A stretch of 64,000 nt of DNA from a bacterium (GCA_963675755.2 CAXXMD010000002.1:1920001-1984000); one strand, 5' to 3'; counted from the stretch's first letter, positions 13,246 through 54,422 are shown. Program-made: numbers and translations. Notes: generated by a model not told the origin, from the letters alone.

Positions 13246-16200
13246 GTGAATACAATTAAATACGTATGCCTGTACATTTTTACATTTATTTCAGTAACTC
13301 TATCTCAAGACCTTCAAGTTCAATGGGTCAAAAATTTTGATTATGCTTACAGCATTGATTTTGCACATGATGGAGGATTTATTTTTCTGGCACGTGATGA
13401 AATATTCAAGATTGATGATCAAGGCACTGTTAAAGATGTTTGGCCGCTGGATTCAGAACATGAAAACCGACATTTTTATAATCTCCAAAAGTGCAATGAA
13501 GGGTATATAACAATTGGTACTGATGTGATTGAAAGCGGATATCTAGAACGCGTATTGTTAAAAAAAATTGACAATCAGGGCCGGCTGGTATGGGAAAGAT
13601 CAGATTACTCTTTCGGTGAAGATAGTGGTATATTAGCCAAACAAACACGTGACAATGGATACATACTTTATTACACTCACTGGAATCCGGCTGACCCACC
13701 GGCAAGCGGCCCCGATGACGATTTGATAATGAAAACGAACCCAAATGGAGAAGAAGAGTGGGATTATGAAGTTAGCTCTTCTGAAGGCGGCATCAATGCA
13801 TTACATCAAACAGCAGATAATGGTTATTTAGTAGCCTTTAACCAGGTTGGCGATTATGATGGTTTGTATGGTAGATTGCTCCGGTTAACCGCTGATGGTC
13901 AGGAACTCTGGGTAACAAAATATAAAGAGTATTTACAATACGCTTTACCAGTAGATAATGGTGGTTTCCTTATATGCGGTAACAATTATTCAAAGGACAA
14001 CCCTGTACGTGACACTGCTTACTTTAAAAAGGTAGATGAAAATGGAGATGAAATCTGGAAAAAGACCTTTCAATGTAAAATGTTAAATGCCAATTTAAAC
14101 AACATAACAAAATTGGACGACAATAGCTATCTGATATATGGATATATATATGATTCTTATTCGCAAACAAAAGGTTGGTTAATCAAAACGGATAATTTAG
14201 GCAATAAAATCTGGGAAAAGACATTTACAGAAATTGATAACATAAAACAAATTTTAAAAATATCTAACAATGAATTTCTTTTATTGGGTAAAAAAGATGA
14301 CTATAAAACGTTAATAAAACTACAAGAAAACACCCAGCAAGATCCCTCAAATTTTGCATTGTTAGACCCTTCGTTTTATAAATTGGGTATTGGTAAGCAG
14401 CTTGTTCTGGATTGGACCAGTATTGCCAATGCTTCATCATACCTCGTTGAAATAGCTGAAAACATTGAAATGTCAAATCCTTTCATTTCAAAAACGATTA
14501 CAAACAGTTCTTGTATCATCGATAGTTTGTCATATTCCACACAATATTATTGGAGGGTTAAAGCCCAATTCCCGGATGGCTCCGGTAAATGGTCTGGTAT
14601 CAGCACATTTACAACAATGATCCCTCCACACATAGAGTTTACTGGAACTGATAGGAATATCCTGTCATATGTAGATGTGGGCGATCAATATTACACGGAC
14701 AGAGATTATACTATAATAGAACTGCCTGATCCATTAAAAAATTGCCTGTGGATCAAAACACAAAATAGCGACAAATATTTAACTGATGATAATTATATTC
14801 AATTCCAGTTAACCAGAGATGCAACTGTCTATATTGCCTATGATAACCGGGCCAGCTCTGTTCCCTATTGGTTATCATCAAATTTTGAACAAACCGGGTA
14901 CACCATTCAGTGCTCTGATGAAGAAAGCAATTTTAATGTATGGAAGGGCCATTTTTCTACTGGTGATGTAACATTGGGAGCAAATTCAGCAAGCGGTGCA
15001 GAAGGTGTACTAACAAATTATGTTGTATTAATAGATATACCCATCCAGATGCTCGATCCCAGGGACAACAAATCAGGGGTTGGAAATAATTTGTACTTTA
15101 GCTGGGAACCATTGGGCAATTTCGGGGCCCATGATTTGCAAATCAGCAATACGCCAAACATGTCATCGCCCTTGTATAACATTACGAATATTGGGAATTC
15201 CAGGTATCTATTTGAAGGATTAGAGTACAATAATGACTATTATTGGAGAGTCAAAGCCCACAATCGTAACGATGAGAATGCATGGTGCCAGATACAAAAA
15301 TTTCATACAATGGATTACCCTAAAGTTAGTATTCATAGTTGGGATGATTATGTATTAACCTGGATTGAAGAAAATGATCAATACTATATTGACCGAAATG
15401 ATGTGGTTCTTTCCATCCCGGATCAGTTGAAAAATTTATTATGGATTAAAACCTCAAATAATAAAGAATATAATATTTTTGAAATTTACCTGAGGAATAA
15501 AGCAACTATCTATGTTGGATTTGATTCAAGGGCCACATCCCTGCCCAATTGGGTAACAGATAATTTTAGTAATACCGGTTTGAACATAAAAGTTTCGGAT
15601 GAAGCAAATGAATTAAATATATGGTCCAGAAATGTTGAAAAGGGCTATACCTACCTCCTGGCAAATATGGCCGAAGGTGCTGAAAATATCAAAAGCCATT
15701 ATATCGTTTTAATAGATACCAACCAGGTCCCTGCACTATCCGCTCATTTTGGTTCAGATGTAACCTCAGGAGTACTCCCATTGACTGTTAATTTCGCAGA
15801 CAGTTCTAAGGGTTTTATAACATCATGGTTATGGGATTTTGGCGACGGAATAACCTCTACTGAAAAAAATCCCACCTACACCTATGAAAACGTGGGCAGC
15901 TATTCAGTCAGCCTGACTGTAAGTAATTATGACAGTTCTAATACCATAACAAAAGAAAATTATATTACAGTTAAAAACATGATTGCTAATTTCAGTGCGG
16001 ATGTAACCATGGGACAAGCACCGCTTACCGTTAGTTTTACCGACAGTTCACTGGGCGAAATTGACGCATGGTTGTGGAAATTTGGAGACGGACTCACAAG
16101 CACATCACAAAATCCTACACACGTGTACACAAATGGCGACTCGTTCACCGTATCACTTTTTGTGCGCGGACCAGGTGGATCAAATACAATGGTCAAATCG

Positions 16201-16518
16201 AATTATATAATAGTCGACCATCCAACATCTATTGACGACATGGCCGGCATACCGGATAAATTCGATTTACTACCCAATTACCCCAATCCATTCAATCCGC
16301 AAACTACAATCCGGTTTGCAGTACCGAAAAGGTCATTTGTAAAAATTACTATATTTGATATAAACGGAAAACTGGTCCAGAACTTATTTTCCGGCACCAA
16401 AAATCCGGGGAATTATGCTATAACCTGGAACGCCTCAGGCTTTCCATCCGGCATGTACTTTATCAAAATGGATACAGATAGCTTTACGTCTGTTCAAAAA
16501 TGTATATTGGTTAAATGA
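13246..16518 (+). CDS. Secreted multidomain protein, array paralog 1 (type A, 2 PKD)
   Basis: Signal peptide; WEK/DGG propeller-like blades; FN3 (YYWRV) x2; unnamed YYxDR...WIKT...(L)GAN domain x2; PKD (WDFGDG) x2; NYPNPFNP C-terminal sorting domain. Confidence 0.9.
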   Translation: MNTIKYVCLYIFTFISVTLSQDLQVQWVKNFDYAYSIDFAHDGGFIFLARDEIFKIDDQGTVKDVWPLDSEHENRHFYNLQKCNEGYITIGTDVIESGYLERVLLKKIDNQGRLVWERSDYSFGEDSGILAKQTRDNGYILYYTHWNPADPPASGPDDDLIMKTNPNGEEEWDYEVSSSEGGINALHQTADNGYLVAFNQVGDYDGLYGRLLRLTADGQELWVTKYKEYLQYALPVDNGGFLICGNNYSKDNPVRDTAYFKKVDENGDEIWKKTFQCKMLNANLNNITKLDDNSYLIYGYIYDSYSQTKGWLIKTDNLGNKIWEKTFTEIDNIKQILKISNNEFLLLGKKDDYKTLIKLQENTQQDPSNFALLDPSFYKLGIGKQLVLDWTSIANASSYLVEIAENIEMSNPFISKTITNSSCIIDSLSYSTQYYWRVKAQFPDGSGKWSGISTFTTMIPPHIEFTGTDRNILSYVDVGDQYYTDRDYTIIELPDPLKNCLWIKTQNSDKYLTDDNYIQFQLTRDATVYIAYDNRASSVPYWLSSNFEQTGYTIQCSDEESNFNVWKGHFSTGDVTLGANSASGAEGVLTNYVVLIDIPIQMLDPRDNKSGVGNNLYFSWEPLGNFGAHDLQISNTPNMSSPLYNITNIGNSRYLFEGLEYNNDYYWRVKAHNRNDENAWCQIQKFHTMDYPKVSIHSWDDYVLTWIEENDQYYIDRNDVVLSIPDQLKNLLWIKTSNNKEYNIFEIYLRNKATIYVGFDSRATSLPNWVTDNFSNTGLNIKVSDEANELNIWSRNVEKGYTYLLANMAEGAENIKSHYIVLIDTNQVPALSAHFGSDVTSGVLPLTVNFADSSKGFITSWLWDFGDGITSTEKNPTYTYENVGSYSVSLTVSNYDSSNTITKENYITVKNMIANFSADVTMGQAPLTVSFTDSSLGEIDAWLWKFGDGLTSTSQNPTHVYTNGDSFTVSLFVRGPGGSNTMVKSNYIIVDHPTSIDDMAGIPDKFDLLPNYPNPFNPQTTIRFAVPKRSFVKITIFDINGKLVQNLFSGTKNPGNYAITWNASGFPSGMYFIKMDTDSFTSVQKCILVK

Positions 16519-16533
16519 TATTAGGAAAAAATC

Positions 16534-19500
16534 GTGAATACTTTAAAAAACGTATGCCTGTTTCTTATCTTAAGCTTTTCAGTAGTATTATCTCAGGACC
16601 TCCAAATTCAATGGGCAAAAACATATGATTATGAATATGCCAATAACATTGACTTTGCACATGATGGAGGATATATTTTTACAACAGGTGATGATAATAA
16701 AGCCATTGTCAAGATTGACAAACATGGCATTGTTCAGGAAGATTGGCCGCTAGACCCTGGCCAAATCCCCGATTATCGTTATCTACAAAAGTGCAATGAA
16801 GGATATATATTAATAGGTAGTCCAAATGATGTAATGTTGAAAAAACTTGACAATCAGGGCCAGCAGGAATGGGAAAAATTCTTTTACAATAAGGATTCCA
16901 AGTCTGATGAGGCTAGCTATTCTTATTACGATTATGGCAGATTGGTAATACAAACACATGACAATGGTTACATTCTTGCGTGTAATTCAAGGGAAACTGT
17001 AAGTATTTGGGGACAATATGATATCTCCAAAGACATTTGGATAATAAAAACTGACCCAAATGGGGAAAAACAGTGGGATTGTTGGATTTGGGGTGGTTAC
17101 TTTTCCGAGGAACCTCGAGCAATACATCAAACATCTGACAATGGTTATATTGTCGCCTGTAACGACAATAAAGACGATTATGGCCATCTATATCGGTTAA
17201 CATCAGACGGCCAGATAATCTGGCAAAAAGAATATAACGAGTATATAGGATACGCGTTACCAGCAGATGATGGTGGATTCTATATATGTGGTAAAAATTA
17301 TTTAAAAAAGGTAGACAAAGATGGAGATTTAATTTGGGAAAAGACTTTACAATATGAATTGTCAGATTCTAATTTAAAAAACATGATAAAATTTGATGAC
17401 AACAGCTATCTATTATGTGGAAACGTTTTTGATTCAGATACGCAATCATGGAAGAATTTATTAATCAAAACGGATAACTTTGGCAATAAAATATGGGAAA
17501 AAACATTTACAGAAATTTCTGGTATAAGTCAAGTTTTGAAAATCACCAATAATGAATTTATTTTATTTGGTAGCAAGGGAGGCCTTGTAACAATAGTAAA
17601 AATTATTGAAAAAATCCAACAAGATCCCACAAAAATTGAATTATTAGATCCTGTAAACTATAAAATGGGAGTTGGTACACAAGTTTGTCTGGATTGGACC
17701 AGCATCTCAAATGCCTCCTCATATCTCCTTGAATTAGATGATGATAGCGACATGTCTAGCCCCATCATTTCAAAAACAATTACAAACAGTTCAAATTGTA
17801 TTATTAACGACCTTTCATACTCTACTCAATATTATTGGAGGGTCATGGCCCAATTCCCGGATGAATCTGGTAATTGGTCTGATATCAGAACTTTTATTAC
17901 AATGCTTCCTCCACACATAGAGTCTAGTGAACCGGAAGGTTACTACTTGTCATATGTGGATGTAGGAGATCAATATTATACAGACAGAGATTATACCATA
18001 ACAGAATTGCCTGATCAGTTGAACAATTGCATATGGATCAAAACCCAAAATAGTGACAAATATTTAACAGATGACAATTACATTCAATTTCAGTTAACCA
18101 GAGATGCAACTGTCTATATTGCCTACGACAACCGTGCCAGTGCTGTTCCCCAATGGTTAACATCTAATTTTGAGCAAACCCAATTCACTATAGAAAGTAC
18201 TGATGAATACTGTAATTTTAATGTCTGGAAGGGCAAATTCTCAGCAGGTGATGTAACACTGGGTGCCAATTTGGCAACCGGAGCAGAGGGTGTGCAAACA
18301 AATTATGTTGTATTCATAGATATACCAATCCAAATGCTCGACCCCAGGGAAAACAAATCAGGTGTTGGAAAAAATTTATACTTAAGCTGGGAAGCATTGG
18401 GCAATTTCGGGAAATACGATTTTCAAATCAGTGATAATCAGGACATGTCAAACCCCTTTTATAATATAACCAACATAGAGTATACCAGGTATAAAATAAG
18501 AGACTTGGAATATAATAAAGACTATTATTGGAGGGTCAAAGCACACAATCGTAACGATGAGGATGCGTGGTGCCAGACACATAAATTTCATACAATGGAT
18601 GATCACAATATTTATTTTTGGGTTAATAGTAATTATGCATTATCCTGGCTTGAAGAAAATGATCAATACTATGTTGATCGAAATGATGTGGTCCTCTCCA
18701 TCCCCGATCCGTTAAAAAATTTACTGTGGATCAAAACGAAAGATGATAATGCAGATATAGATGAGCCTATTGGACATCTCATGGAAATTGAATTTAAAAA
18801 AGAAGCAACCCTCTATGTCGGTTTCGATTCAAGGGCTGTTTCACTACCAAACTGGGTAACAAACTATTATAAAAATACCGGATTGACCATAAAAGTTTCT
18901 GACGAAGCAAATGAATTAAATATATGGTCCAGAAATGTTACAAAAGGCTGGGTCTACTTGGGATTCAATATGGCAAAAGGCGCTGAAAACATCAACAGTC
19001 ATTATGTCGTTTTAATAGACACCAACCAGGTACAACCTCTCTCTGCTCATTTCAGTTCAGATGTGACATCAGGAGTGTCCCCGTTAACCGTTAATTTCTC
19101 TGACAGTTCTCAAGGTCTGATAACATCTTGGGCATGGAATTTTGGCGACGGAAAAACCTCAACAGAAAAAAATCCCTCCCACACCTATGGAAACGCGGAA
19201 AGTTACACCGTTAGCTTGACCGTGAGTGGTATGGGCGGTTCTGATACCATAGAAAAAGAAAATTACATAACCGTATATGAAACAACACCACTTGCTAAAT
19301 TCGGTTCAGACAAAATATCAGGAGAACTACCATTGACCGTCAATTTTTCTGACAGTTCTCATGGGATAATAGAATCCTGGGTATGGAATTTTGGTGATGA
19401 GTCAACATCTACAGAACAGAATCCTTCACACACCTATGAAAACGCGGGACGGTATACAGTCAGCTTGACAGTAAGTGGGCCATACGGTTCTGATACCTTA

Positions 19501-20076
19501 ACAAAAGAAAATTACATTATCGTAAAAAAAGCGGTCCCAATAGCAAATTTTGGTTCAGATGTAATCATGGGGCAAGCTCCGCTAACTGTCAGCTTTAGAG
19601 ACAGTTCGCTGGGTGAAATCGATTCCTGGTTGTGGAAATTTGGAGACGGACTCACAAGTACAGCGCAAAATCCAACTCACGTGTACACATCTGCAGACTC
19701 TTTTACTGTAACATTATTCGTATATGGACCCGGTGGATCAAATACAATGATCAAATCGAATTATATAATAGTTGACCACCCAACATCCATAAACGACATG
19801 GCCGGGATACCGAAAAAATTCAATCTGCTACCCAATTACCCCAATCCATTCAATCCGCAAACCACTATCCGCTTTGCGGTACCCAAAAGGTCATTTGTAA
19901 AAATAAATGTATATGATGTAAATGGTAAACGGGTAAACAATTTGTTCTCCGGAATCAAAAACCCGGGATATTTTTCACTCACATGGGATGCAACAGGATT
20001 TCCATCCGGCATGTATTTCATCAAAATGGATACGGATACTTTTACGTCTGTTAAGAAATGTATCTTGGTCAAATAA
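16534..20076 (+). CDS. Secreted multidomain protein, array paralog 2 (type B, 3 PKD)
   Basis: Same architecture with three PKD repeats; GTG start 15 bp after the previous stop. Confidence 0.9.
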   Translation: MNTLKNVCLFLILSFSVVLSQDLQIQWAKTYDYEYANNIDFAHDGGYIFTTGDDNKAIVKIDKHGIVQEDWPLDPGQIPDYRYLQKCNEGYILIGSPNDVMLKKLDNQGQQEWEKFFYNKDSKSDEASYSYYDYGRLVIQTHDNGYILACNSRETVSIWGQYDISKDIWIIKTDPNGEKQWDCWIWGGYFSEEPRAIHQTSDNGYIVACNDNKDDYGHLYRLTSDGQIIWQKEYNEYIGYALPADDGGFYICGKNYLKKVDKDGDLIWEKTLQYELSDSNLKNMIKFDDNSYLLCGNVFDSDTQSWKNLLIKTDNFGNKIWEKTFTEISGISQVLKITNNEFILFGSKGGLVTIVKIIEKIQQDPTKIELLDPVNYKMGVGTQVCLDWTSISNASSYLLELDDDSDMSSPIISKTITNSSNCIINDLSYSTQYYWRVMAQFPDESGNWSDIRTFITMLPPHIESSEPEGYYLSYVDVGDQYYTDRDYTITELPDQLNNCIWIKTQNSDKYLTDDNYIQFQLTRDATVYIAYDNRASAVPQWLTSNFEQTQFTIESTDEYCNFNVWKGKFSAGDVTLGANLATGAEGVQTNYVVFIDIPIQMLDPRENKSGVGKNLYLSWEALGNFGKYDFQISDNQDMSNPFYNITNIEYTRYKIRDLEYNKDYYWRVKAHNRNDEDAWCQTHKFHTMDDHNIYFWVNSNYALSWLEENDQYYVDRNDVVLSIPDPLKNLLWIKTKDDNADIDEPIGHLMEIEFKKEATLYVGFDSRAVSLPNWVTNYYKNTGLTIKVSDEANELNIWSRNVTKGWVYLGFNMAKGAENINSHYVVLIDTNQVQPLSAHFSSDVTSGVSPLTVNFSDSSQGLITSWAWNFGDGKTSTEKNPSHTYGNAESYTVSLTVSGMGGSDTIEKENYITVYETTPLAKFGSDKISGELPLTVNFSDSSHGIIESWVWNFGDESTSTEQNPSHTYENAGRYTVSLTVSGPYGSDTLTKENYIIVKKAVPIANFGSDVIMGQAPLTVSFRDSSLGEIDSWLWKFGDGLTSTAQNPTHVYTSADSFTVTLFVYGPGGSNTMIKSNYIIVDHPTSINDMAGIPKKFNLLPNYPNPFNPQTTIRFAVPKRSFVKINVYDVNGKRVNNLFSGIKNPGYFSLTWDATGFPSGMYFIKMDTDTFTSVKKCILVK

Positions 20077-20091
20077 TATTAGGGGGAAACC

Positions 20092-23000
20092 GTGAATAAA
20101 ATAAAAAAAATATGTCTATTTATCTTCTCAATTGTTTCAATAGCACTATCTCAAGACCTGCAAATTCAATGGTCAAAAACATATGATTATAAATATGCTA
20201 ATAACATTGACTTTGCACATGATGGAGGATATGTTTTCACAACATATGACGATAAAACTATTGTAAAGATTGACAAACATGGCATTGTTCAGGAAGATTG
20301 GCCGCTAAATTCTGGAGAAAATCCCATCATTAGTTATCTACAAAAGTGCAATGAAGGCTATATAATATTAAGTACTACTCCAATGTTGATAAAACTTGAC
20401 AACCAGGGCCGGCAGGAATGGGAAAAACAATATTACGAAAATAAATATGGTGAAGTTGATTATTGGTACACTGGTGAATTTGTCAAACAAACTCATGACA
20501 ATGGATACATTCTTTTTTGTACTAAAAACAATAATGCTGATCCCTCGGGTTCCCGCAAGAGCTTTATGTTTATTAAAACGGACCTCAATGGGGAAAAAGA
20601 GTGGCAAAGTGGGGCCAGTGGTGATTATTATGGAAAAAATACGTCTAAAGCAGTACATCAATTATCAGATGGTGGCTATATTTTCGCCTACAACAACGAT
20701 GATGGCGGCCTGACCCGGTTATCACCAGACGGCAAGGATATCTGGGAGAAAAGATATGACGAATATTTAGAATATACCTTGCCAGCAGATGATGGTGGAT
20801 TCTTTATTTGCGGTCGAGATTATACTAAAGATACCTATTCTTCCGAAACCGCTTATTTAAAAAAAGTAGACCAAAATGGAGATGAAATTTGGAAAAAAAC
20901 ATTCCAAAATGCTTCATCCTATTCTTTGCTCAATAACATTGAATTATTGAATGATGGTAATATTTTGGTATGTGGTAAAATAGTAGATACATCTGATTGG
21001 TCCTCTTCTGAGTGCTGGCTAATTAAAACGGATAGTTTAGGCAATAAAATATGGGAAAAAACTTTTTCAGAACTTGATGACATAAAACAAATTTTGAAAA
21101 TTGATAACAATGAATTCCTTTTATTCGGCATAAAGGACTATTATACAACGATAATGAAAATCAAAGAAAACGATCCCAAAGACCCCTCAAGTTTTGCATT
21201 ATTAGATCCTGTATTCCATAAATTGGGAGTTGGTACCCAACTTTGTCTGGATTGGTCCAGCATTGCAAATGCGTCATCATACCTCGTTGAAATTGATGAC
21301 AGCATTGACATGTCAAATCCCCTCATTTCAAAAACAGTTTCAAACAGTTCAGGTTGCATAATTAAGGACCTGACCTACTCAACTCAATATTATTGGAGGG
21401 TCAGGGCCCAATTCCCGGATGGATCCGGCAAATGGTCCGGTATCAGCACCTTTACAACAATGATTCCTCCACACATAGAGCTTGATGGTAAAAAAAACAA
21501 CATGTCTTATGTGGACGTCAGAGATCAATACTATACAGACAGAGATTACACAGTGACAGGACTTTCTGATGAATTGAAAAATTGTCTATGGATAAAAACT
21601 CAAAACAGCGACAAATATTTAACTGATGACAATTACATACAGTTTAATTTAAAAAGAGATGCAACTGTCTATGTAGCCTATGACAACCGGGCAAGTTCTG
21701 TACCCCATTGGTTATCATCAGGATTTGAACTAACTGAACACACCATTCAGAATTCTGATGAAGAAAGTAATTTTAATATCTGGAAGGGCAGATTCCCGGC
21801 AGGTGACGTAACATTAGGGGCCAATTCGGCAAGCGGAGCAGAGGGTGCGCAGACAAATTATGTTGTATTAATAGATGTTCCACTGCAGATACTTGACCCC
21901 AGGGACAACAAATCAGGGATTGGTAATGATTTAATCTTGAGCTGGGAGACACTGGGCAATTTCGGGTCATATGACCTACAAATCAGCGAATATCAGGACA
22001 TGTCCATTCCATTATATAATATTACAAACATCATGAATCCCAAGTATCGGATTGAAGAGCTGGACTATAATAAAGATTATTTTTGGAGAATCAAAGCACA
22101 CAATCGTAACGATGAGAATGCATGGTATCAGACACAAAAATTTCATACAATGCGTGAACCTCACATTAAAATTTTGTGGCAAGACGAATATTTATTATCC
22201 TGGCTTGAAGAAAATGAACAATATTATATTGACTGTAATCATGTGGTCCTTTCTATCCCTGATCAATTAAAAAATTTACTGTGGATCAAAACAGCAAATG
22301 ACGATGCGGATATAATTTATAGTTTTCCTCTGGAATTTCGATTACAAAGTGATGCAACCATCTATGTGGGCTTTGATTCAAGGGCCACTGCATTGCCAAA
22401 CTGGGTAACTGAACATTATAGCAACACCGGTTTATCCATAACAGTTTCTGATTCAGCAAATGAATTAAATATATGGGCCAGAAATGTTATAAAAGGTGAT
22501 ATCGAGTTGGGATTTAATATGGCAGAAGGCGCTGAAAATATCAAAAGTCATTATGTCGTTTTGATAGACACCAATCAGGTCCCCCCCTTGTCCGCTCATT
22601 TTGGTTCAGATGTAACCTCAGGAGTACTCCCATTGACCGTTAATTTCGCAGACAGTTCTAAGGGTTTTATAACATCATGGTTATGGGATTTTGGTGATGG
22701 AACGACCTCTACAGAAAAAAATCCCTCCCACACCTTTAAAAACTCGGGAAACTATAACGTTAGCCTAACCGTGATTGGTATGGGAAGTTCTGATACAATA
22801 ACAAAAGAAAATAATATTACAGTTAAAAACATGATTGTAAATTTCAGTGCGGATGTGACCATGGGAAAAGCGCCACTCACTGTGAGTTTTACCGACAGTT
22901 CACTGGGCGAAATTGACGCATGGTTATGGAAATTTGGAGACGGACTCACAAGCACGTCTCAAAATCCAACGCATGTATACACATCTGGCGACTCGTTCAC

Positions 23001-23370
23001 CGTATCGCTTTTTGTGCGCGGACCAGGTGGATCTAATACAATGGTAAAAACGAATTTCATAATAGTAGACCATCCAACATCCATTGATGACATGGCCGGT
23101 ATACCGGATAAATTCGATTTACTTCCCAATTATCCCAATCCGTTTAATCCGCAAACCACAATCCGGTTTGCGGTACCTAAAAAGTCTTTTGTAACATTAA
23201 CAGTATATGATATAAACGGAAAACAGGTAAGCAATTTGTTCTCCGGAATCAAAAACCCGGGATATTTTTCACTCACATGGAACGCCTCAGGCTTTCCATC
23301 CGGCATGTATTTCATCAAAATGGATACGGATACCTACTCGTCTGTTCAAAAATGTATACTGGTTAAATAA
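20092..23370 (+). CDS. Secreted multidomain protein, array paralog 3 (type A, 2 PKD)
   Basis: Same architecture; 15-bp spacer. Confidence 0.9.
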   Translation: MNKIKKICLFIFSIVSIALSQDLQIQWSKTYDYKYANNIDFAHDGGYVFTTYDDKTIVKIDKHGIVQEDWPLNSGENPIISYLQKCNEGYIILSTTPMLIKLDNQGRQEWEKQYYENKYGEVDYWYTGEFVKQTHDNGYILFCTKNNNADPSGSRKSFMFIKTDLNGEKEWQSGASGDYYGKNTSKAVHQLSDGGYIFAYNNDDGGLTRLSPDGKDIWEKRYDEYLEYTLPADDGGFFICGRDYTKDTYSSETAYLKKVDQNGDEIWKKTFQNASSYSLLNNIELLNDGNILVCGKIVDTSDWSSSECWLIKTDSLGNKIWEKTFSELDDIKQILKIDNNEFLLFGIKDYYTTIMKIKENDPKDPSSFALLDPVFHKLGVGTQLCLDWSSIANASSYLVEIDDSIDMSNPLISKTVSNSSGCIIKDLTYSTQYYWRVRAQFPDGSGKWSGISTFTTMIPPHIELDGKKNNMSYVDVRDQYYTDRDYTVTGLSDELKNCLWIKTQNSDKYLTDDNYIQFNLKRDATVYVAYDNRASSVPHWLSSGFELTEHTIQNSDEESNFNIWKGRFPAGDVTLGANSASGAEGAQTNYVVLIDVPLQILDPRDNKSGIGNDLILSWETLGNFGSYDLQISEYQDMSIPLYNITNIMNPKYRIEELDYNKDYFWRIKAHNRNDENAWYQTQKFHTMREPHIKILWQDEYLLSWLEENEQYYIDCNHVVLSIPDQLKNLLWIKTANDDADIIYSFPLEFRLQSDATIYVGFDSRATALPNWVTEHYSNTGLSITVSDSANELNIWARNVIKGDIELGFNMAEGAENIKSHYVVLIDTNQVPPLSAHFGSDVTSGVLPLTVNFADSSKGFITSWLWDFGDGTTSTEKNPSHTFKNSGNYNVSLTVIGMGSSDTITKENNITVKNMIVNFSADVTMGKAPLTVSFTDSSLGEIDAWLWKFGDGLTSTSQNPTHVYTSGDSFTVSLFVRGPGGSNTMVKTNFIIVDHPTSIDDMAGIPDKFDLLPNYPNPFNPQTTIRFAVPKKSFVTLTVYDINGKQVSNLFSGIKNPGYFSLTWNASGFPSGMYFIKMDTDTYSSVQKCILVK

Positions 23371-23385
23371 TATTAGGGAAAAACC

Positions 23386-26949: not shown

Positions 26950-27060
26950 GGGAATCATTCCAAGCCCAGGGTTTTATGACCTGGGCAACCGAATTGTTCA
27001 CAAAGGATCATCTTTTAATCCTGTTAATCATGTTTTATCGTGGTAATCATATAATCCTGT

Positions 27061-30200: not shown

Positions 30201-30545
30201 GGTGGATCAAATACAATGGTCAAATCGAATTATATAATAGTCGACCATCCAACATCTATTGACGACATGGCCGGCATACCGGATAAATTCGATTTACTAC
30301 CCAATTACCCCAATCCATTCAATCCGCAAACCACAATCCGGTTTGCGATACCCAAAAGGTCATTTGTAAAAATTACTATATTTGATATAAACGGAAAACT
30401 GGTCCAGAACTTATTTTCCGGCACCAAAAATCCGGGGCATTATGCCATCACATGGAACGCCTCAGGCTTTCCATCTGGTATGTATTTCATCAAAATGGAT
30501 ACGGATGCCTACTCGTCAGTTAGAAAATGTATCTTGGTCAAATAA
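27243..30545 (+). CDS. Secreted multidomain protein, array paralog 5 (type A, 2 PKD)
   Basis: Same architecture; ATG start after the duplicated leader. Confidence 0.9.
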   Translation: MNTIKNVCLFILSIISITLSQDLQIQWAKTYDYESGSYMNIDFAHDGGFVFTTYDDKTIVKIDNHGIVQEDWPLDLGKIPIYGYLQKCNEGYILISTVRHEGKLKALLKKLDNQGRLEWEKYYYEDDHGEVNVWNSGEFVKQTQDNGYILFCTSNNNADPSGSRLSFWFIKTDPYGEIEWESGASGDFYGSNTSIDVHQLSDGGYIFAYNNDDGGLTRLSPDGHDIWEKRYDQYIKYVLPANNSGFFIGGNYYLSDANTQGTVYLKKVDENGDEIWIKTFQNDSKALYTRNMILLDDNSCLLCGSSLEPGSYTSNGWIIKADSLGNKIWEKNFPEINNINQVLKISENEFLVFGEKDDRVTIIKLQENDPNDPTKLELLEPVNHKLGVGNQLCLDWTSVANASSYLVELDDDSDMSSPLLSKTVSNSSSCIINDLADSTQYYWRVRAQFPEGPGNWYGINTFTTMLPPHMEFSEQEGYYLSYVDVGDQYYTDRDYTITELPDQFKNCIWIKTPDSEKYLTDDNYIQFQLKRNATVYIAYDNRASSVPYWLSSGFEQTEYTIQNSDEESNFTVWKGQFTAGDVALGANSASGAEGVLTNYVAFIDIPLQMLDPRDNKSGVGKDLSFSWEAIGNFENYDLQISDNQVMSSPLSYITNIKYTRYILRDLDYNKDYYWRIKAHNCNDENSWYQTQKFHTMNEPIVKLSEYEYYILSWLEENDQYYINQNDVILSIPDQLKGLLWVKTANNDLALEYDSFYIHPEKEVTIYVGFDSRATSLPNWVTDDFKNTGLTITVSDSANELNIWTRNLNKSIFSFGECWAEGAENIKSQYVVLIDTNQVAPLSAKFDSDVTLGVPPLTVNFSDSSQGFITSWLWDFGDGITSTEKNPTHTYENVGSYSVSLTVSNYDSSNTITKENYITVKNMIANFSADVTMGQAPLTVSFTDSSLGEIDAWLWKFGDGLTSTSQNPTHVYTYGDSFTVSLFVRGPGGSNTMVKSNYIIVDHPTSIDDMAGIPDKFDLLPNYPNPFNPQTTIRFAIPKRSFVKITIFDINGKLVQNLFSGTKNPGHYAITWNASGFPSGMYFIKMDTDAYSSVRKCILVK

Positions 30546-30560
30546 TATTAGGGGAAAATC

Positions 30561-33500
30561 GTGAATACAATACAAAAAATATGTCTGTTTATCTTGTCGA
30601 TTGTTTCAATAACACTATCTCAAGACATTCAAATTCAATGGTCAAAAGCATATGATTATAAAAAGGGTAATTTCATTGACTTTGCTCATGATGAAGGTTT
30701 TGTTTTCACCCTCTATTATAATTATTATGAGGGGGAAATTATAAAAATAGATGACCAAGGCGCTGTACAAGATGTTTGGCTCTCTGATCCTGCTTTTGAA
30801 GACCAGGAGTATTATCATGTACAAAAATGCACTGAAGGCTATATAGCAGCCGGCTTTATAGAGCTGGATGATTCAAATAAAATGATGGCAATATTAAAAA
30901 AACTTGACAATCAGGGCCGACAGGAATGGGAAAAATTCTATTATCATGATGATGTTTCGGAAAATGACTATACCGATGGCTATCATGTTGACAACTATGG
31001 CATATTGGTCAAACAAACACGTGATAAAGGTTACATTCTCTTATGTGAAGAAATAGAAGATGATGGCAAATGGGGTATCGACAAAGACTTTTGGTTAATA
31101 AAAACAGACCCATATGGGGAAAAAGAGTGGGATTATAGGATTTGGGCTGATTACAGTTTTGTCGATGCTGCCCGAGCAATACATCAAACATCTGATGATG
31201 GTTATATTATCGCTTATAACGACAGTGATGACGAATTTGGCCATCTGCTCCGGTTTACTGCAGACGGCCGGAAAATCTGGGAAAAAGAATATAAAGAGTA
31301 TATAAGATACGCTTTACCAACAGAGGATGGTGGAAACATTATATGCGGTAGCAAATTTTTAAAAAAGGTAGACCAAAATGGAGATGAAATATGGGAAAAG
31401 ACTATACAATATGAATCATTAAAACCTTATTTAAATAACATGACAAAATTGGATGACAATAGTTATTTATTGTGTGGGGTGGTTTGGGATTCAGACACGC
31501 AATCACGAAAAGGCTGCTTAATCAAAACGGACAACCTGGGTAATAAAATATGGGAAAAAACATTTACTGAATTTGATGATTTATATCAAGTTTTACAAAT
31601 TTCTAACAATGAATTTATTTTATTCGGTGAAAAAAAAGAATATGTAACGATAGTAAAAATCAAGGTAAACGCTCAGCAAGATCCCACAACATTTGAATTA
31701 TTAAACCCTGTAAACAATAAATTGGGGGTTGGTACCCAGCTTGTTCTGGATTGGACCAGCATTGCCAATGCGTCATCATATCTCCTTGAATTAGATGATA
31801 AAAGAGATATGTCAAGTCCCCTCATTTCAAAAACAATAACAAACAGTTCAAATTGTATTATTAAAGATTTATCTGATTCAACACAATATTACTGGAAAGT
31901 CAGGGCCCAATTCCCGGATGGATCAGGTTATTGGACAGAGACCAGCACCTTTACAACAATGCCTCCTCCACATATCGAATTTAATGGACCGGATGGTTAT
32001 TACTTTTCATATGTGGACGTTGGAGATCAATACTATACAGACAGAGAGTATACAATAACAGGATTTCCAAATCAATTGAATAATTGTTTATGGATCAAAA
32101 CCCGAAACAGTGAAAAGTATATAACCGATGATAATTACATTCAATTTCAGTTAAAAAGAGATGCAACCGTCTATATCGCTTATGACAACCGGGCCAGCTC
32201 TGTTCCTCATTGGTTATCATCAAATTTTGAGCAAACTGAATACACTATTGAGAATTCTGATGAAGAAAGTAATTTTACTGTTTGGAAGGGCCGGTTCCCG
32301 GCAGGTGATGTAACATTAGGGGCCAATTCGGCAAGCGGAGCAGAGGGTGTACAAACAAATTATGTTGTACTTGTAGATATACCGATACAGATGCTTGACC
32401 CAAGAAACAACAAAACAGGTGTTGGGAATGATGTAATCTTGAGCTGGGAACCTCTGGGCAATTTCGGGACATATGATATACAACTCGGTGAAGATCAGGA
32501 CATGTCAAATCCCTTAAATAATAATACCAACATAAAGCGTACCAGGAATAGTATAAGAGACTTGGATTATAATAAAGACTATTACTGGAGAGTCAAAGCT
32601 CACAATCGTGACGATGAGGATGCCTGGTCCCAAACGCAAAAGTTTCATACAATGGATGAACCGCCAGTTGAAATAATTACAAGCTGGTATAATCCTGTAT
32701 TTGCCTGGCTTGAAGAAAATGATCAATACTATATTGATCGAAATGATGTAGTTCTTTCCCTCCCGGATCAGTTGAAAAATTCATTATGGATTAAAACAGC
32801 TAATAATGATGCACAAAACACTTTTAATTATTATAATCTGCGTCTTCGATTTGAAAAAGAAGCAACCCTCTATGTGGGTTTTGATAAAAGGGCGACATCC
32901 CTGCCAACCTGGGTAACAGATCATTATAGCAATACCGGCTTGACCATAAAAGTTTCGGATGAAGCAAATGAATTAAATATATGGTCCAGAAATGTAGAAA
33001 AAGGCGAAATCAAGTTGGAGGCAAACATGGCGGAAGGCGGTGAAAATATCAAAAGTCATTATGTCGTTTTAATAGACACCAACCAGGTACAGACCCTTTC
33101 TGCAAATTTCGGTTCAGATGTAACAACGGGAGTGCTACCGTTAACCGTCAGTTTCTCAGACAGTTCTCAAGGCTTAATCACAGCATGGTTATGGGATTTT
33201 GGTGATGGCGCAACCTCTACAGAACAGAATCCTTCCCATACCTATGAAAACAGGGGAATCTATACCGTTAGCCTGACAGTCAATAATCAATACAGTTCTG
33301 ATACAACTATAAAAGAAAATTACATTACCGCATACGAAACAGCGCCGGTGGCTAAATTCGGTTCAGACAAAATATCAGGATATCTGCCATTGACTGTCAG
33401 TTTCTCCGACAGTTCTCATGGGATTATCGAATCTTGGGCTTGGGATTTTGGTGACGGGACAACATCAACAGAACAGAACCCTTCTCACACCTACGAAAAC

Positions 33501-34133
33501 ATGGGCAGCTATACTGTCAGCCTGACAGTCAGTAATCAAGACAGTTCTGATACAATGATAAAAGAGAATTACATAAAAGCATATATTGTACCGCCAACTG
33601 CTAACTTTGGTGCGGATGTAACTAATGGCCTACTACCGCTAACCGTTAGTTTCACCGACAGTTCGCTGGGTGAAATCGACTCCTGGTTGTGGAAATTTGG
33701 AGACGGACTCACAAGCACAGTGCAAAATCCAAAGCACATGTACACATCTGGCGACTCTTTTACGGTATCACTTTTTGTGAGTGGGCCCGGTGGATCAAAT
33801 ACAATGGTCAAAACAAATTATATTTTAGTGGACCATCAAACATCCATTGACGACATGGCCGGGATACCGGAAAAGTTCGATTTACTGCCCAATTATCCCA
33901 ATCCATTCAATCCGCAAACCACAATCCGGTTTGCGGTACCGCAAAAATCACATGTAACATTAACAGTATTTGACATAAACGGAAAACAAATAAGCAATTT
34001 GTTCTCCGGGATTAAAAATCCGGGACATTATGCTATAACCTGGAATGCCTCAGGCTTTTCATCCGGTATGTATTTCATCAAAATGGATACGGACACCTAC
34101 TCTTCTGTTAGAAAATGTATCTTGGTTAAATAA
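30561..34133 (+). CDS. Secreted multidomain protein, array paralog 6 (type B, 3 PKD)
   Basis: Same architecture; 15-bp spacer. Confidence 0.9.
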   Translation: MNTIQKICLFILSIVSITLSQDIQIQWSKAYDYKKGNFIDFAHDEGFVFTLYYNYYEGEIIKIDDQGAVQDVWLSDPAFEDQEYYHVQKCTEGYIAAGFIELDDSNKMMAILKKLDNQGRQEWEKFYYHDDVSENDYTDGYHVDNYGILVKQTRDKGYILLCEEIEDDGKWGIDKDFWLIKTDPYGEKEWDYRIWADYSFVDAARAIHQTSDDGYIIAYNDSDDEFGHLLRFTADGRKIWEKEYKEYIRYALPTEDGGNIICGSKFLKKVDQNGDEIWEKTIQYESLKPYLNNMTKLDDNSYLLCGVVWDSDTQSRKGCLIKTDNLGNKIWEKTFTEFDDLYQVLQISNNEFILFGEKKEYVTIVKIKVNAQQDPTTFELLNPVNNKLGVGTQLVLDWTSIANASSYLLELDDKRDMSSPLISKTITNSSNCIIKDLSDSTQYYWKVRAQFPDGSGYWTETSTFTTMPPPHIEFNGPDGYYFSYVDVGDQYYTDREYTITGFPNQLNNCLWIKTRNSEKYITDDNYIQFQLKRDATVYIAYDNRASSVPHWLSSNFEQTEYTIENSDEESNFTVWKGRFPAGDVTLGANSASGAEGVQTNYVVLVDIPIQMLDPRNNKTGVGNDVILSWEPLGNFGTYDIQLGEDQDMSNPLNNNTNIKRTRNSIRDLDYNKDYYWRVKAHNRDDEDAWSQTQKFHTMDEPPVEIITSWYNPVFAWLEENDQYYIDRNDVVLSLPDQLKNSLWIKTANNDAQNTFNYYNLRLRFEKEATLYVGFDKRATSLPTWVTDHYSNTGLTIKVSDEANELNIWSRNVEKGEIKLEANMAEGGENIKSHYVVLIDTNQVQTLSANFGSDVTTGVLPLTVSFSDSSQGLITAWLWDFGDGATSTEQNPSHTYENRGIYTVSLTVNNQYSSDTTIKENYITAYETAPVAKFGSDKISGYLPLTVSFSDSSHGIIESWAWDFGDGTTSTEQNPSHTYENMGSYTVSLTVSNQDSSDTMIKENYIKAYIVPPTANFGADVTNGLLPLTVSFTDSSLGEIDSWLWKFGDGLTSTVQNPKHMYTSGDSFTVSLFVSGPGGSNTMVKTNYILVDHQTSIDDMAGIPEKFDLLPNYPNPFNPQTTIRFAVPQKSHVTLTVFDINGKQISNLFSGIKNPGHYAITWNASGFSSGMYFIKMDTDTYSSVRKCILVK

Positions 34134-34148
34134 TATTTGGGGAAAACC

Positions 34149-37100
34149 GTGAACACAATAAAAAACGTATGCCTGTTTCTTTTTTTGAGCGTTTCAATAG
34201 CACTATCTCAAGACATTCAAATTCAATGGGCAAAAACATATGATTATGAATCTGATGGACACTTTATTTTTACATATGATGAAGGACTTTTTTTCATAAC
34301 AGGTGGTGAAGAAATTGTCAGTATTGATAACCAGGGCGCTGAGCAAAATGTCTGGTCGCTTGATCCTGATCATAAATATGAATACATGGGTGATATTGTA
34401 TTTAAAAAGTGCAATGAAGGATATATAATAACAGGTTCGATTCGTCTTGAAGATGAAAACAAAATCAAGGTATTGCTGAAAAAACTTGACAATCAAGGGC
34501 AGCAGGAATGGGAAAAACTCTTTTTCAAAGATGATTATATTAGTGATTATGATGAAGAAGAAGCAAACGTTTCCGTTAACAACTATGGTGGATTTGTCAA
34601 ACAAACACGCGACAATGGTTACATTCTATTTTGTAAAGGATTAGAGTCTGACAGTTTTTATTTCGACGGCTACATGTGGATAATTAAAACAAACCCATAT
34701 GGGGAAAAAGAATGGGACTATAAATTTGGCACTTTTGGCCACCACATAGCATTACATCAAACATCTGATGATGGTTATTTAGTGGCATATAGCAAGCACG
34801 ACGACTATGATGGCGATACTGACCATCTGCTCCGGTTAACACCAGATGGAAAAAAAGAATGGGATTATACATTTAGCACTGACAGGGACGTTAAATCAAT
34901 ACAGCCAACATCTGATGATGGTTATCTTGTCGCTTATAACCGTGATAACGATTCCGGCAATCTGCTCAGGTTAACAGCAGATGGTCAGGAAGTCTGGGAG
35001 AAAAGTTATAAAGAGTTATTAGGATACACCAAACCAGCAGACGATGGCGGATTCTATATATACGGTAACAATCATTCAAAGGATAACCCTGCATGGGATA
35101 CCATATATTTGAAAAAAGTAGCTGAAAATGGTGATGAAATTTGGAAAAAGACTTTTCAAGGTGATATGTCATATGCCTGGTTTTACAACATGATTAAATT
35201 GGATGACAATGGTTACCTGTTATATGGTCATTTTTCAGAGTTTGCTTGGCATACAGGACAAAAGGGCTGGTTAATCAAAACGGACAATTCAGGTAATAAA
35301 ATATGGGAAAAAACATTTACAAGCATTAATAGCATAACTCAAATTCTAAAAATTTCCCCAAACAAATTTATTTTAGCAGGGCATAAAGACGGTTATAAAA
35401 CTATAATTAAAGTCCAGGAAACCACTGAAAATTCCACAACATTTGAATTATTAAGCCCTGTAAACAATAAATCGGGAACTGGAACTCAACTTGTTCTGGA
35501 TTGGACCCCTGTCGATAACGCTTCATCATATCTTGTTGAATTAGATGATAATAGAGACATGTCAAGTCTTGTCATCTCAAAAACTGTATCAAATGAATCA
35601 AACTGCATAGTAGATGGTTTATCCTATTCTACACAATATTATTGGAAAGTCAGGGCACAATTCCCGGATGGATCAGGTTATTGGACAGAGTCCGGCACAT
35701 TTAAAACAATGCCTCCTCCACACATAGAGTTTAATGATAAAGAATACAATATGTCTTATGTGGATGCTGGCGATCAATATTACACGGACAGAGAGTATAC
35801 CATAACAGATCTACCTGATCCATTAAAAAATTGCCTGTGGATCAAAATCCCAAACAGTGAAAAGTATTCAACAGATGACAATTACATTCAATTTCAATTA
35901 AAAAGAGATGCAACTATCTATATCGCTTATGACAACCGGGCCAGCGCTGTCCCAGTTTGGTTATCATCCGAATTTGAGAAAACCGAATACACCATTGAGA
36001 ATACTGATGAAGAAAGTAATTTTAATGTATGGAAGGGCCAATTTGCAGCAGGTGATGTAACATTGGGAGCCAATTTAGCAAACGGCGCAGAGGGTGTCTT
36101 GACAAATTATGTTGTGTTAATAGATATCCCCACCCAAATGCTTGACCCCAGGCACAACAAAACCGGGATTGGAAATGATTTATACTTTAGCTGGGAACCA
36201 TTGGGCAATTTCGGGCCATACGATATAAAAGTCAGCGAAAATCAGGACATGTCAAATCCCTTATATCATATTACCAACATAGAGTATGCCAGGTATAAAA
36301 TAAGAGATTTAGACTATAATAAAGACTATTACTGGAGGATCAAAGCGCACAATCGTAATGATGAGAATGCGTGGTACCAGACACGAAAATTCCATACAAT
36401 GGATGATCCCAATATTCGTCTCTGGGGGCAACAATGGTATACATTTTCCTGGCTTGAAGAAAATGATCAATATTATAATGACCGGAATGATGTGGTTCTT
36501 TCTATCCCTGATCCGTTAAAAAATTTATTGTGGATTAAAACAGATAATGATGATGCAGCTAATGATTCTAACGATCATCTGGAATTTAGATTATATTATA
36601 ACGCAACCCTCTATGTTGGTTTTGATTCAAGAGCTACATCCCTGCCAAACTGGGTAACAGATGATTTTAGTAATACCGGTTTGACCATAACCGTTTCTGA
36701 TTCGGCAAAAGAATTAAATATATGGTCAAAAAATTTCAATAATAGCTGGGTCGCATTGGGATCTAATATGGCCAAAGGCGCTGAAAACATCAAAAGTCAT
36801 TATGTCGTTTTAATAGATACCAACCAGGTACAACCTATCTCTGCTCATTTTGGTTCAGATGTGACATCAGGTGCACTACCCTTAACCGTTAATTTCGCAG
36901 ACAGTTCCCAAGGCCTTATCACAGCATGGGAATGGGATTTTGGTGATGGAACAACCTCTACAGAAAAGAATCCCTCCCATACCTATGAAAATACGGGAAA
37001 TTATTCGGTGAGTTTAACAGTACACGCACCAGACAGCTCTGACACAATCATAAAAGAAAATTACATTACAGTTAAAAATGTGATAGCAAATTTCAGTGCA

Positions 37101-37619
37101 GATGTGACCACGGGGCAAGCGCCACTCACTGTGAGTTTTACCGACAGTTCGCTGGGTGAAATTGATTCCTGGTTATGGAAATTTGGTGACGGACTCACAA
37201 GCACATCACAAAATCCTACACACGTGTACACATCTGGCGACTCGTTCACCGTATCGTTATTTGTGCGTAATTCCAGTGGATCAAATACAATGGTCAAATC
37301 GAATTATATAATAGTTGACCACCCAACATCCATTGACGATATGGCCGGGATACCGGACAAATTCGATTTACTGCCCAATTACCCAAATCCATTCAATCCG
37401 CAAACCACAATCCGGTTTGCAGTACCGAAAAGGTCATTTGTAAAATTAACTATATATGATATCAACGGAAAGCAGGTCCAGAACTTATTCTCCGGCACCA
37501 AAAATCCGGGGAATTATGCCATCACATGGAACGCCTCAGGCTTTTCTTCCGGCATGTATTTCATCAAAATGAATACGGACACCTACTCGTCTGTTAGAAA
37601 ATGTATGCTGGTCAAATAA
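34149..37619 (+). CDS. Secreted multidomain protein, array paralog 7 (type A, 2 PKD, one extra propeller blade)
   Basis: Start moved to GTG 34149 (MNTIKNV) by analogy with the other paralogs and the 15-bp spacer. Confidence 0.9.
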   Translation: MNTIKNVCLFLFLSVSIALSQDIQIQWAKTYDYESDGHFIFTYDEGLFFITGGEEIVSIDNQGAEQNVWSLDPDHKYEYMGDIVFKKCNEGYIITGSIRLEDENKIKVLLKKLDNQGQQEWEKLFFKDDYISDYDEEEANVSVNNYGGFVKQTRDNGYILFCKGLESDSFYFDGYMWIIKTNPYGEKEWDYKFGTFGHHIALHQTSDDGYLVAYSKHDDYDGDTDHLLRLTPDGKKEWDYTFSTDRDVKSIQPTSDDGYLVAYNRDNDSGNLLRLTADGQEVWEKSYKELLGYTKPADDGGFYIYGNNHSKDNPAWDTIYLKKVAENGDEIWKKTFQGDMSYAWFYNMIKLDDNGYLLYGHFSEFAWHTGQKGWLIKTDNSGNKIWEKTFTSINSITQILKISPNKFILAGHKDGYKTIIKVQETTENSTTFELLSPVNNKSGTGTQLVLDWTPVDNASSYLVELDDNRDMSSLVISKTVSNESNCIVDGLSYSTQYYWKVRAQFPDGSGYWTESGTFKTMPPPHIEFNDKEYNMSYVDAGDQYYTDREYTITDLPDPLKNCLWIKIPNSEKYSTDDNYIQFQLKRDATIYIAYDNRASAVPVWLSSEFEKTEYTIENTDEESNFNVWKGQFAAGDVTLGANLANGAEGVLTNYVVLIDIPTQMLDPRHNKTGIGNDLYFSWEPLGNFGPYDIKVSENQDMSNPLYHITNIEYARYKIRDLDYNKDYYWRIKAHNRNDENAWYQTRKFHTMDDPNIRLWGQQWYTFSWLEENDQYYNDRNDVVLSIPDPLKNLLWIKTDNDDAANDSNDHLEFRLYYNATLYVGFDSRATSLPNWVTDDFSNTGLTITVSDSAKELNIWSKNFNNSWVALGSNMAKGAENIKSHYVVLIDTNQVQPISAHFGSDVTSGALPLTVNFADSSQGLITAWEWDFGDGTTSTEKNPSHTYENTGNYSVSLTVHAPDSSDTIIKENYITVKNVIANFSADVTTGQAPLTVSFTDSSLGEIDSWLWKFGDGLTSTSQNPTHVYTSGDSFTVSLFVRNSSGSNTMVKSNYIIVDHPTSIDDMAGIPDKFDLLPNYPNPFNPQTTIRFAVPKRSFVKLTIYDINGKQVQNLFSGTKNPGNYAITWNASGFSSGMYFIKMNTDTYSSVRKCMLVK

Positions 37620-54396: not shown

Positions 54397-54422
54397 ATTA
54401 AAATCCTGATTCGTGATTAAGA

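Follow-up and report, generated by a model that had tools for sequence, protein, structure and literature searches.

One exported protein family is kept as nine intact copies in the genome of an uncultured, sediment-type and apparently free-living bacterium, and the sequences suggest that its members are most likely cell-surface binding proteins with different targets. Seven of the copies (A1-A7) form a head-to-tail array at positions 13246-37619 of the window, by which we mean the whole 64,000-nucleotide stretch of DNA that was analysed (G000:C2:1920001-1984000, from a 6.48-Mb genome in 3 contigs that is 98% complete), and two further full-length copies (B1 and B2) stand in tandem at a second locus, on contig C3. 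Copies in a sister species are designated gA and gB; G000 denotes the genome of the window, G001 that of the sister species (a congener) and G017 a genome from another genus. On balance, we favor the view that the family constitutes a lineage-specific repertoire of binding proteins exported through type IX secretion (T9SS), probably for glycans or particles.

The seven open reading frames (ORFs) of the array all lie on the plus strand, contain no internal stops and encode proteins of 1090-1190 aa that align over their full length, with 67-71% identity to the product of gene 1 and a mean column identity of 71%. A first-pass annotation, made from the sequence alone, had described seven intact, co-oriented genes of one architecture, and this description holds. 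It had also given the length of five of the six junctions as exactly 15 bp, which is correct if A7 begins at the GTG at 34149 rather than at the TTG at 34137: junctions 1, 2, 3 and 5 are 15 nt long and follow the pattern TATTWGGRRRAAAYC-GTG, junction 6 then takes the same form, and junction 4 is a spacer of 293 nt. GTG is the start codon of 15 of the 17 family genes in the two species, ATG being confined to A5 and B1. The annotation's statement that no copy of the array is pseudogenised extends to the entire family, all 17 members of which are intact.

Family proteins begin with a putative signal peptide and a head domain and end with 2-3 PKD domains and a sorting domain; because the two intervening X domains are homologous (35-42% identity between X1 and X2), we read the portion between head and PKD domains as 2 x (FN3 + X). 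Pfam recognizes fn3, two or three PKD_4 stretches and Por_Secre_tail in the array proteins, and the forms with three PKD domains are A2, A4, A6, B2 and gA5. The N-terminal head, which had been called propeller-like, is predicted by AlphaFold to be a seven-bladed beta-propeller: the model (predicted local distance difference test, pLDDT, 86.7; predicted template modeling score, pTM, 0.85) has 28 strands and therefore seven four-stranded blades. The alignment behind it was made from 16 of the 17 family heads and that of G017, with gA4 excluded since it crosses a locus boundary. A Foldseek search with the head returned propellers only, of which CylK was the best (TMq 0.76, E 1.7e-13, 13-15% identity), and in Pfam the head has only sub-threshold matches, to BNR_2 and to PQQ_2 (PF13360, BamB-like), the latter at E-values of 4.7e-5 to 0.013 and with scores of 15.6 bits for the A1 head and 23.6 bits for the A7 head, below the gathering cut-off of 27.6. 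Seven four-stranded blades are also the organization of CylK (7FH6, 7ROO) and of PQQ_2/BamB/YxaL-type propellers, from which the present head differs in having no catalytic or calcium-domain partner.

Each blade repeat consists of a W-x-K strand, a variable loop, a strand ending in QT.D and a DNG-type turn, followed in its second half by a GYIL strand, another variable loop, an LIKTD strand and an xNG turn, and the framework motifs that had been named for this domain are seen in the alignment of the array proteins. The A7 head contains one additional blade-like repeat of ~45 aa and, from its sequence, may have eight blades, not seven. At window positions 34600-34760, in A7 (residues ~160-215), the tandem-duplicated blade is visible as two consecutive TSDDGYLVAY...LLRLT.DG..W units.

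Because an antiparallel meander alternates its loops, the two variable loop classes of the blade repeat fall on one face of the propeller and the two turn classes on the other. Entropy, computed over 17 sequences, reaches 1.81 bits in the loops after the W-x-K strand and 2.09 bits in those after the GYIL strand, compared with 0.62 and 0.64 bits in the conserved turns of the opposite face and 0.75-1.39 bits in the strands. Insertions are similarly distributed, with 79 of the 86 insertion columns lying in variable-face loops (part of these columns represent the extra blade-like repeat of A7), and none of the 37 invariant head residues is located within those loops. Variability is thus polarised to one propeller face, as the faces are assigned by topology in the model. 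The loops had been described as rich in Tyr, Asp and Trp, which is accurate for the first two residues only: Asp (17.5%) and Tyr (11.6%) head the composition, ahead of Ser (10.1%), Asn (9.3%) and Gly (9.1%), and Trp is not among the ten commonest residues.

Export by the T9SS is supported by three features of the genome sequence. The C-terminal sorting domain, already recognized by the first-pass annotation, is of type A and scores well above curated cut-offs (45.3 and 44.5 bits for TIGR04183 against a cut-off of 23; 43.1-51.3 bits for PF18962, Por_Secre_tail, against 27). The genome encodes a homologue of SprA (SprA_N, PF14349, 135.9 bits, at G000:C3:1882417), and at least 150 ORFs carry a sorting domain above the cut-off, a figure set by the 150 candidates scored out of 279, none of which failed, so that the array represents seven members of a very large cargo set. 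At the other end of the proteins, a hydrophobic N-terminus that leads into LS/QD can be read directly from the sequence of 17 of 17 copies. As an observation in its own right, the predicted signal-peptidase site at residues 19-22 leaves an N-terminal Gln in all 17 proteins (LS/QD or QA/QD). A passage in PMC5837995 describes this ‘Q-rule’ as typical for Bacteroidetes, not for the whole Fibrobacteres-Chlorobi-Bacteroidetes (FCB) group.

The X domains found no match in Pfam at E-values up to 10, and a search of the ESM Atlas with X returned unnamed clusters only (score ≤0.87). Their model is a beta-sandwich (pLDDT 82.1), and among ~48,000 representative chains only two exceed a Z-score of 5: residues 848-990 of 6hpd, a beta-glucuronidase of glycoside hydrolase (GH) family GH2 (Z 17.2, root-mean-square deviation, rmsd, 2.4 over 137 residues; VIA), and residues 731-873 of 6hze, the GH138 enzyme BP0997 (Z 11.8, rmsd 3.4 over 131; VIA), both of which are C-terminal beta-sandwich domains of glycosidases. 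A profile search of PDB sequences also retrieved 6hpd (E=1e-4), with which X shares the motifs YTD..Y...LP..L...T.N.D and D..xxxP.WL; characterised carbohydrate-binding modules align with Z ≤3.6. In a profile search of 1.84 billion representatives, X had 3216 relatives at E-values up to 1e-3 and 1593 at up to 1e-10. Domain context was scanned in 40 of the 150 listed matches, a non-random set picked by a size limit, and the neighbors of X there included GDSL esterases, 3-keto-disaccharide-hydrolase-like domains, M14 and reprolysin peptidases, GH31 and apiosidase-like domains, as well as VWA, FG-GAP, cadherin-like and PKD domains, with a T9SS sorting domain alongside X in 16 of the 40. Given so many relatives and such co-occurring domains, we regard X as a widespread, unnamed accessory module of secreted proteins. 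Because beta-sandwiches of this kind otherwise sit at the C-termini of glycoside hydrolases, X may bind carbohydrate, a role suggested by the company that it keeps. The open-access full text yielded no stated function for the X-like C-terminal domains of 6HPD and the GH138 enzyme. In those two enzymes the domain, although it has the fold of X, is a single appendage of a catalytic protein, whereas the present family has two X domains, each behind an FN3 domain and with no recognised catalytic domain. X thus emerges as a widespread beta-sandwich for which Pfam has no model and whose solved relatives occur only at the ends of two glycosidases.

Median Nei-Gojobori omega (the ratio of nonsynonymous to synonymous divergence, dN/dS) over the 36 G000 paralog pairs is 0.69 in the variable loops (3 of 36 pairs exceed 1), 0.16 in the opposite-face loops, 0.42 in the strands, 0.23 in the stalk from FN3a to X2 and 0.15 in the PKD and sorting domains. 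Codon parsimony on the head tree assigns 0.75 to the aligned variable loops and 1.08 to their insertion columns, as against 0.26 for the opposite face and 0.52 for the strands, and omega pooled over the five closest inter-species pairs is 0.41, 0.30 and 0.29 for variable loops, opposite-face loops and strands, and 0.22 and 0.12 for the FN3a-X2 stalk and the PKD and sorting domains. On these values, the variable face is 3-4 times less constrained than the opposite face and evolves at near-neutral rates, and the common stalk is under purifying selection (omega 0.15-0.23). The idea of diversified tips on a common stalk is therefore borne out, in that diversity is concentrated in the loops of one face. 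As to the loops' dN/dS, the paralog and tree values are not well below 1, but they do not rise above about 1 either, and that of the close pairs is lower still.

Several points weigh against a repertoire of binding proteins. Loop omega does not rise above 1 by pairwise or tree measures, such that positive selection is not demonstrated, and in the closest inter-species pairs it is just 0.41 as compared with ~0.30 elsewhere in the head, so relaxed constraint alone could explain the variability; all of these figures are limited by uncertain loop alignments and by paralog dS near saturation. The two faces were told apart by the order of strands in the DSSP string of the model rather than by coordinates. 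In structure the head comes closest to an enzyme, no relative of X with a demonstrated ligand was found, and, because the neighbors of B1-B2 (peptidase S9, two-component and MFS genes) include no carbohydrate-active ones, genomic context offers weak support for glycan ligands, even though the array itself is flanked by GH28, GH92+PA14, a WbsX-like gene and a sulfatase.

The first of these points would be accounted for if the genes were functionally redundant duplicates of a single secreted protein, whose loops drift under relaxed constraint and which serve no repertoire function. Loop omega at or below ~1 by every measure, with so few paralog pairs in excess of it, and loops that barely differ from strands in the close pairs are what such drift would produce. 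We nevertheless consider it improbable. Mean dS between the G000 paralogs is 0.75-1.05 and the duplicates are therefore old, yet all 17 copies have stayed intact in both species; the head framework and the opposite face remain under purifying selection (omega 0.16-0.26); distinct head lineages have been maintained across the species split; and the apparent recent passage of head-bearing tracts between species, described below, is unexpected for redundant genes.

The structural match to an enzyme raises a different prospect, namely that the proteins are secreted enzymes with a catalytic propeller (a polysaccharide lyase or hydrolase, or a CylK-like transferase), that the copies differ in substrate specificity, and that X and PKD are substrate-binding appendages. 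The head's nearest neighbor in the PDB is indeed a propeller from CylK, a Friedel-Crafts enzyme. Where relatives of X have been solved, they are attached to glycoside hydrolases; X is also found together with esterases, GH31 and apiosidase-like domains, and GH28, GH92 and sulfatase genes flank the array. However, the identity to CylK is low, and many non-enzymatic propellers match as well. Active sites of propellers are usually situated in the loops of such a face, where none of the invariant head residues lies; those 37 residues instead make up the structural W, G, D and K that recur from blade to blade. Pfam and NCBIfam matched the family proteins to no catalytic family, NCBIfam naming just the sorting domain. 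Enzymatic heads are accordingly an unlikely reading and, like the redundancy just discussed and the switching considered below, less likely than a set of binding proteins.

The family has evolved as a mosaic. Trees of the head, of FN3a-X1, of FN3b-X2 and of the last PKD plus sorting domain are mutually discordant. The X1-X2 stalk of A4, for example, has its nearest partner in gA5 (89-99% nucleotide identity in 150-nt windows), and the heads of A4 and gA5 belong to different clades, which indicates that heads have been swapped on orthologous stalks. A second process is confined to the last PKD and sorting-domain region, where conversion tracts link A1 to A5 in G000 (Table 1) and, in G001, gA1 to gA5 (215 nt, 100%) and gB1 to gB2 (185 nt, 99.5%); from these tracts, 3' ends are homogenised within each genome.

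A third process appears to connect the two species. The six flanking orthologs of G000 and G001 have dS values of 0.36-0.85 (a seventh pair, PQQ_347, was dropped, its ORF being cut by the window edge and its alignment just 25.8% identical). Positions 27384-29756 of A5 are 97.3% identical to gA3 at the nucleotide level, and a tract in the A6 head (30730-31333) is 98.7% identical to gA4. The proportion of synonymous differences (pS) is 0.073 for A5-gA3 and 0.083 for B1-gB1 from head to X2, 0.037 for the A6-gA4 head and 0.136 for A4-gA5 over X1-X2, each of these four tracts departing from the least diverged flank gene (Fisher p 1.6e-4 to 1.3e-12). Some head+stalk tracts are thus 4-10 times less diverged between the species than the flanking genes. 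By comparison, pS in the PKD and sorting region is 0.48 for A5-gA3 and 0.46 for B1-gB1, and A1-gA1 is flank-like from head to X2 (0.342). Because the tracts are far less diverged than the flanks, the simplest reading of these two genomes is that recombination has recently exchanged head+stalk tracts between the species, the breakpoints lying in conserved sequence.

These bounded tracts of low synonymous divergence suggest that the heads of surface proteins cross species faster than the rest of the genome, a point of relevance to the adaptation of uncultured bacteria to substrates or phages. A tentative and rather doubtful extension is that the heads form a pool of binding specificities moving among co-existing species, in which head+stalk cassettes are exchanged and diversity is kept by frequency- or niche-dependent selection. 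Cassettes would then be bounded by conserved signal-peptide and X2/PKD sequences and would move by homologous recombination, the 3' sorting end remaining native. If true, such a pool would give bacteria an equivalent, made of T9SS cargo, of combinatorial receptor repertoires.

Expression of the family is probably organized in three transcription units in G000 (A1-A4, A5-A7 and B1-B2), because homologous leaders with an invariant block precede A1, A5 and B1. The block is situated ~50 nt before the start codon and is common to the leaders of A1, A5, B1, gA1 and gB1. An ungapped pattern search of the genome allowing up to 6 substitutions located it only before A1 and A5, and the B1 block, seen in the leader alignment, has a 1-nt deletion. 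The block is likely to be an operator or promoter element. RNA folding in the leader was no better than that of shuffled sequences (z 0.80), as were promoter and terminator scans of three intergenic regions, and no inverted repeats ≥12 nt occur in 12478-13300 or 26900-27300.

A multigene surface family with gene-conversion tracts, and with repeat-rich leaders containing A and T runs before each unit, could in principle undergo phase or antigenic variation, one or a few copies being expressed at a time as an escape from phages, predators or a host. We judge this very unlikely. Every copy of the operon-like array has its own ribosome-binding spacer, and no indel variants occur in contigs from the two array-bearing sequencing runs described below. 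Silent-cassette antigenic variation was rejected on the grounds that none of the 9 copies is truncated, each having a start and a spacer to itself, and that the genome contains no partial head copies; invertible-promoter phase variation, on the absence of inverted repeats around the leaders; and a diversity-generating retroelement, on the lack of any match to PF00078 (reverse transcriptase) in the 98% complete genome, control genomes giving matches, and on the presence of indels in many of the loops. The ‘variable-receptor repertoire’ of the first-pass annotation is consequently no more than an analogy, since no silent cassettes, invertible promoter, reverse transcriptase or read-level variation were found, and its suggestion that the proteins act as phage decoys found no support.

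The comparison of copy number among relatives, which the annotation had proposed, shows that the sister species has eight copies (6 + 2) in syntenic places, all intact and with 14-16-nt junctions. A head search of 5.8 billion proteins recovered the architecture only in G000 and one other genome. Of 41 related genomes, 13 yielded a match to the head at E-values up to 1e-5, but matches above 46% identity are limited to G000 and its congener, those in other genera being weak; G017 has a single 1043-aa gene of similar architecture, with one PKD stretch and 29% head identity. Similar heads (22-30% identity) occur in many phyla with different appendages. We found no description of the family in open-access full text.

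Arrays of close paralogs could be artefacts that combine the alleles of several strains, which we consider unlikely here because neighboring copies are separated by dS of ~0.75-1.05, heads are covered at similar depth, and the sister-species array is syntenic on one 6.5-Mb contig. Logan contigs from two runs of one sample, which may be the source sample, cover every one of the 30 bins of 13001-33000 and match each unique head exactly, at a depth of 7.5-12.7. These contigs contain no insertion or deletion variants of the array, and none of those listed spans a junction-rich stretch. Short joints among them have sides of 20-23 nt that fall within conserved stalk sequence and were therefore read as repeat collapses rather than variants. 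Contigs from the runs of a second study contain only a gA3-like tract (~96-97%); they agree with G001 and therefore speak against an assembly artefact.

The sequences themselves show the architecture, the secretion signals, variability polarised to one face, purifying selection on the stalk and mosaicism; surface display, binding and the nature of the ligands are what we infer. The proteins would cross the inner membrane by means of the Sec signal peptide and the outer membrane through the T9SS by means of the type A sorting domain, and then, by analogy with other type A cargo, would be either fixed to the cell surface or released. The PKD domains and the two FN3 + X modules would form a conserved stalk that holds out the seven-bladed propeller, whose variable axial face is the putative ligand-binding surface. 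Because the loops of this face differ in length and sequence in every copy, each copy may recognise a target of its own, with polysaccharides or particle surfaces as the most plausible candidates. The repertoire would be renewed by recombination, through head swaps, homogenisation of 3' ends within a genome, and head+stalk tracts passing between the two species.

The closest known parallels include SprB and RemA, the multi-copy gliding adhesins of Flavobacterium johnsoniae, which are T9SS cargo with Ig-like/PKD stalks; SprB itself has a type B sorting domain. T9SS type A cargo resembles the family in being large, with an N-terminal signal peptide (putative here) and a C-terminal sorting domain, and includes several paralogs per genome that are thought to differ in surface-binding specificity. 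Unlike SprB and RemA, the present paralogs form a head-to-tail row separated by 15-nt spacers and are variable on a single propeller face; we know of no described T9SS cargo with a propeller + 2x(FN3-X) + PKD architecture. In their evolution, the genes recall Helicobacter bab/hop, Treponema tpr and Chlamydia pmp, multigene surface families shaped by gene conversion and mosaic recombination, and the likeness extends to conserved ends, variable regions, conversion tracts (581 nt, 99% here) and discordant segment trees. Those families, however, are outer-membrane beta-barrels or autotransporters of host-associated pathogens, whereas this one is T9SS cargo and gives no sign of switching. T9SS-bearing bacteria of sediment and soil encode hundreds of sorted proteins whose ligands are almost entirely unstudied; since its scaffold is conserved, a single face is hypervariable and the recombination boundaries are clear, this family is a natural experiment for comparing and swapping heads.

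Table 1. Coordinates of the array and associated features, numbered from the first nucleotide of the window unless a locus is given.
Feature	Position	Strand	Remarks
AATC repeats	12703-13100	+	~400 nt, 10-nt-periodic; 113-nt higher-order unit x3.4, 94% identity
Leader/promoter region of unit 1	13117-13245	+	homologous to leaders of A5, B1, gA1, gB1
Invariant block	13165-13198, 27166-27198; L001 about 8170-8205		33-34 nt, GC-rich/A-rich
Gene A1	13246-16518	+	1090 aa, GTG start, 2 PKD
A1 signal peptide (putative)	13246-13305	+	
A1 propeller	13306-14340	+	
A1 FN3a	14341-14619	+	
A1 X1	14620-15039	+	
A1 FN3b	15040-15312	+	
A1 X2	15313-15723	+	
A1 2 PKD	15724-16245	+	
Conversion tract in A1	15830-16410	+	581 nt, 99.0% to 29857-30437 in A5; 72.4% upstream
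A1 T9SS sorting domain	16246-16515	+	
15-nt junction	16519-16533	+	purine-rich Shine-Dalgarno-like run
Gene A2	16534-20076	+	1180 aa, 3 PKD
Gene A3	20092-23370	+	1092 aa, 2 PKD
Gene A4	23386-26949	+	1187 aa, 3 PKD
15-nt junctions	20077-20091, 23371-23385, 30546-30560, 34134-34148	+	same form as 16519-16533
Junction 4 spacer	26950-27242	+	293 nt; AATC repeats + second copy of family leader
Gene A5	27243-30545	+	1100 aa, ATG start
Conversion partner in A5	29857-30437	+	last PKD + sorting domain
Gene A6	30561-34133	+	1190 aa, 3 PKD
Gene A7	34149-37619	+	1156 aa from homologous GTG; start in ORF list, TTG 34137

The AATC repeats upstream of A1 are built of TAATCCNNNN / AATCAAGGTAATCC units and recur at 26990-27110, at G000:C3:450882-451222, C3:2086916-2087220, C3:2113594-2113893 and C2:1649348-1649625, and altogether between dozens of unrelated genes of the genome; they are present in the sister species too. 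The notion of a family-specific regulatory array was dropped in view of these many unrelated sites. Since the units are phased at one helical turn, they may represent bent DNA or an array of binding sites.

Other parts of the genome contain related proteins. A second tandem array, at G000:C2:1326574-1339006 (L002 4574-17006, minus strand), comprises four paralogs of 1020-1033 aa, each with an unannotated N-terminal part, three PKD stretches and a T9SS sorting domain, and a related single gene lies at G000:C1:85613-89335. Parts of the four paralogs match the X2-PKD-sorting-domain end of A1 with 40-53% identity; the genome puts one stalk to use with other heads as well. Three more T9SS-sorted proteins are encoded within the window, on the minus strand: a CotH kinase + lamin-tail protein (52093-54516), a protein with an Lcl C-terminal domain (54423-56261) and an arylsulfotransferase-like propeller (57041-58690), the first two ORFs overlapping by 94 nt as listed.

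At the upstream edge of the array, the GH28 gene (10852-12477) stands between a conserved 331-aa ORF and A1; it is absent from the syntenic place in the sister species, in which the 331-aa ORF is followed directly by gA1. Some 7 kb downstream of the array is an IS3-type transposase pair (HTH_Tnp_1 + rve, 44299-45479, minus strand), seemingly absent at that place in the sister species, where the ORF pattern differs. Farther downstream, 51201-51920 on the minus strand encodes a Gmx_para_CXXCG protein (PF09535, E 1.5e-28), a family defined, by its Pfam name, on myxobacterial paralogs and found here in a different phylum from the myxobacteria.

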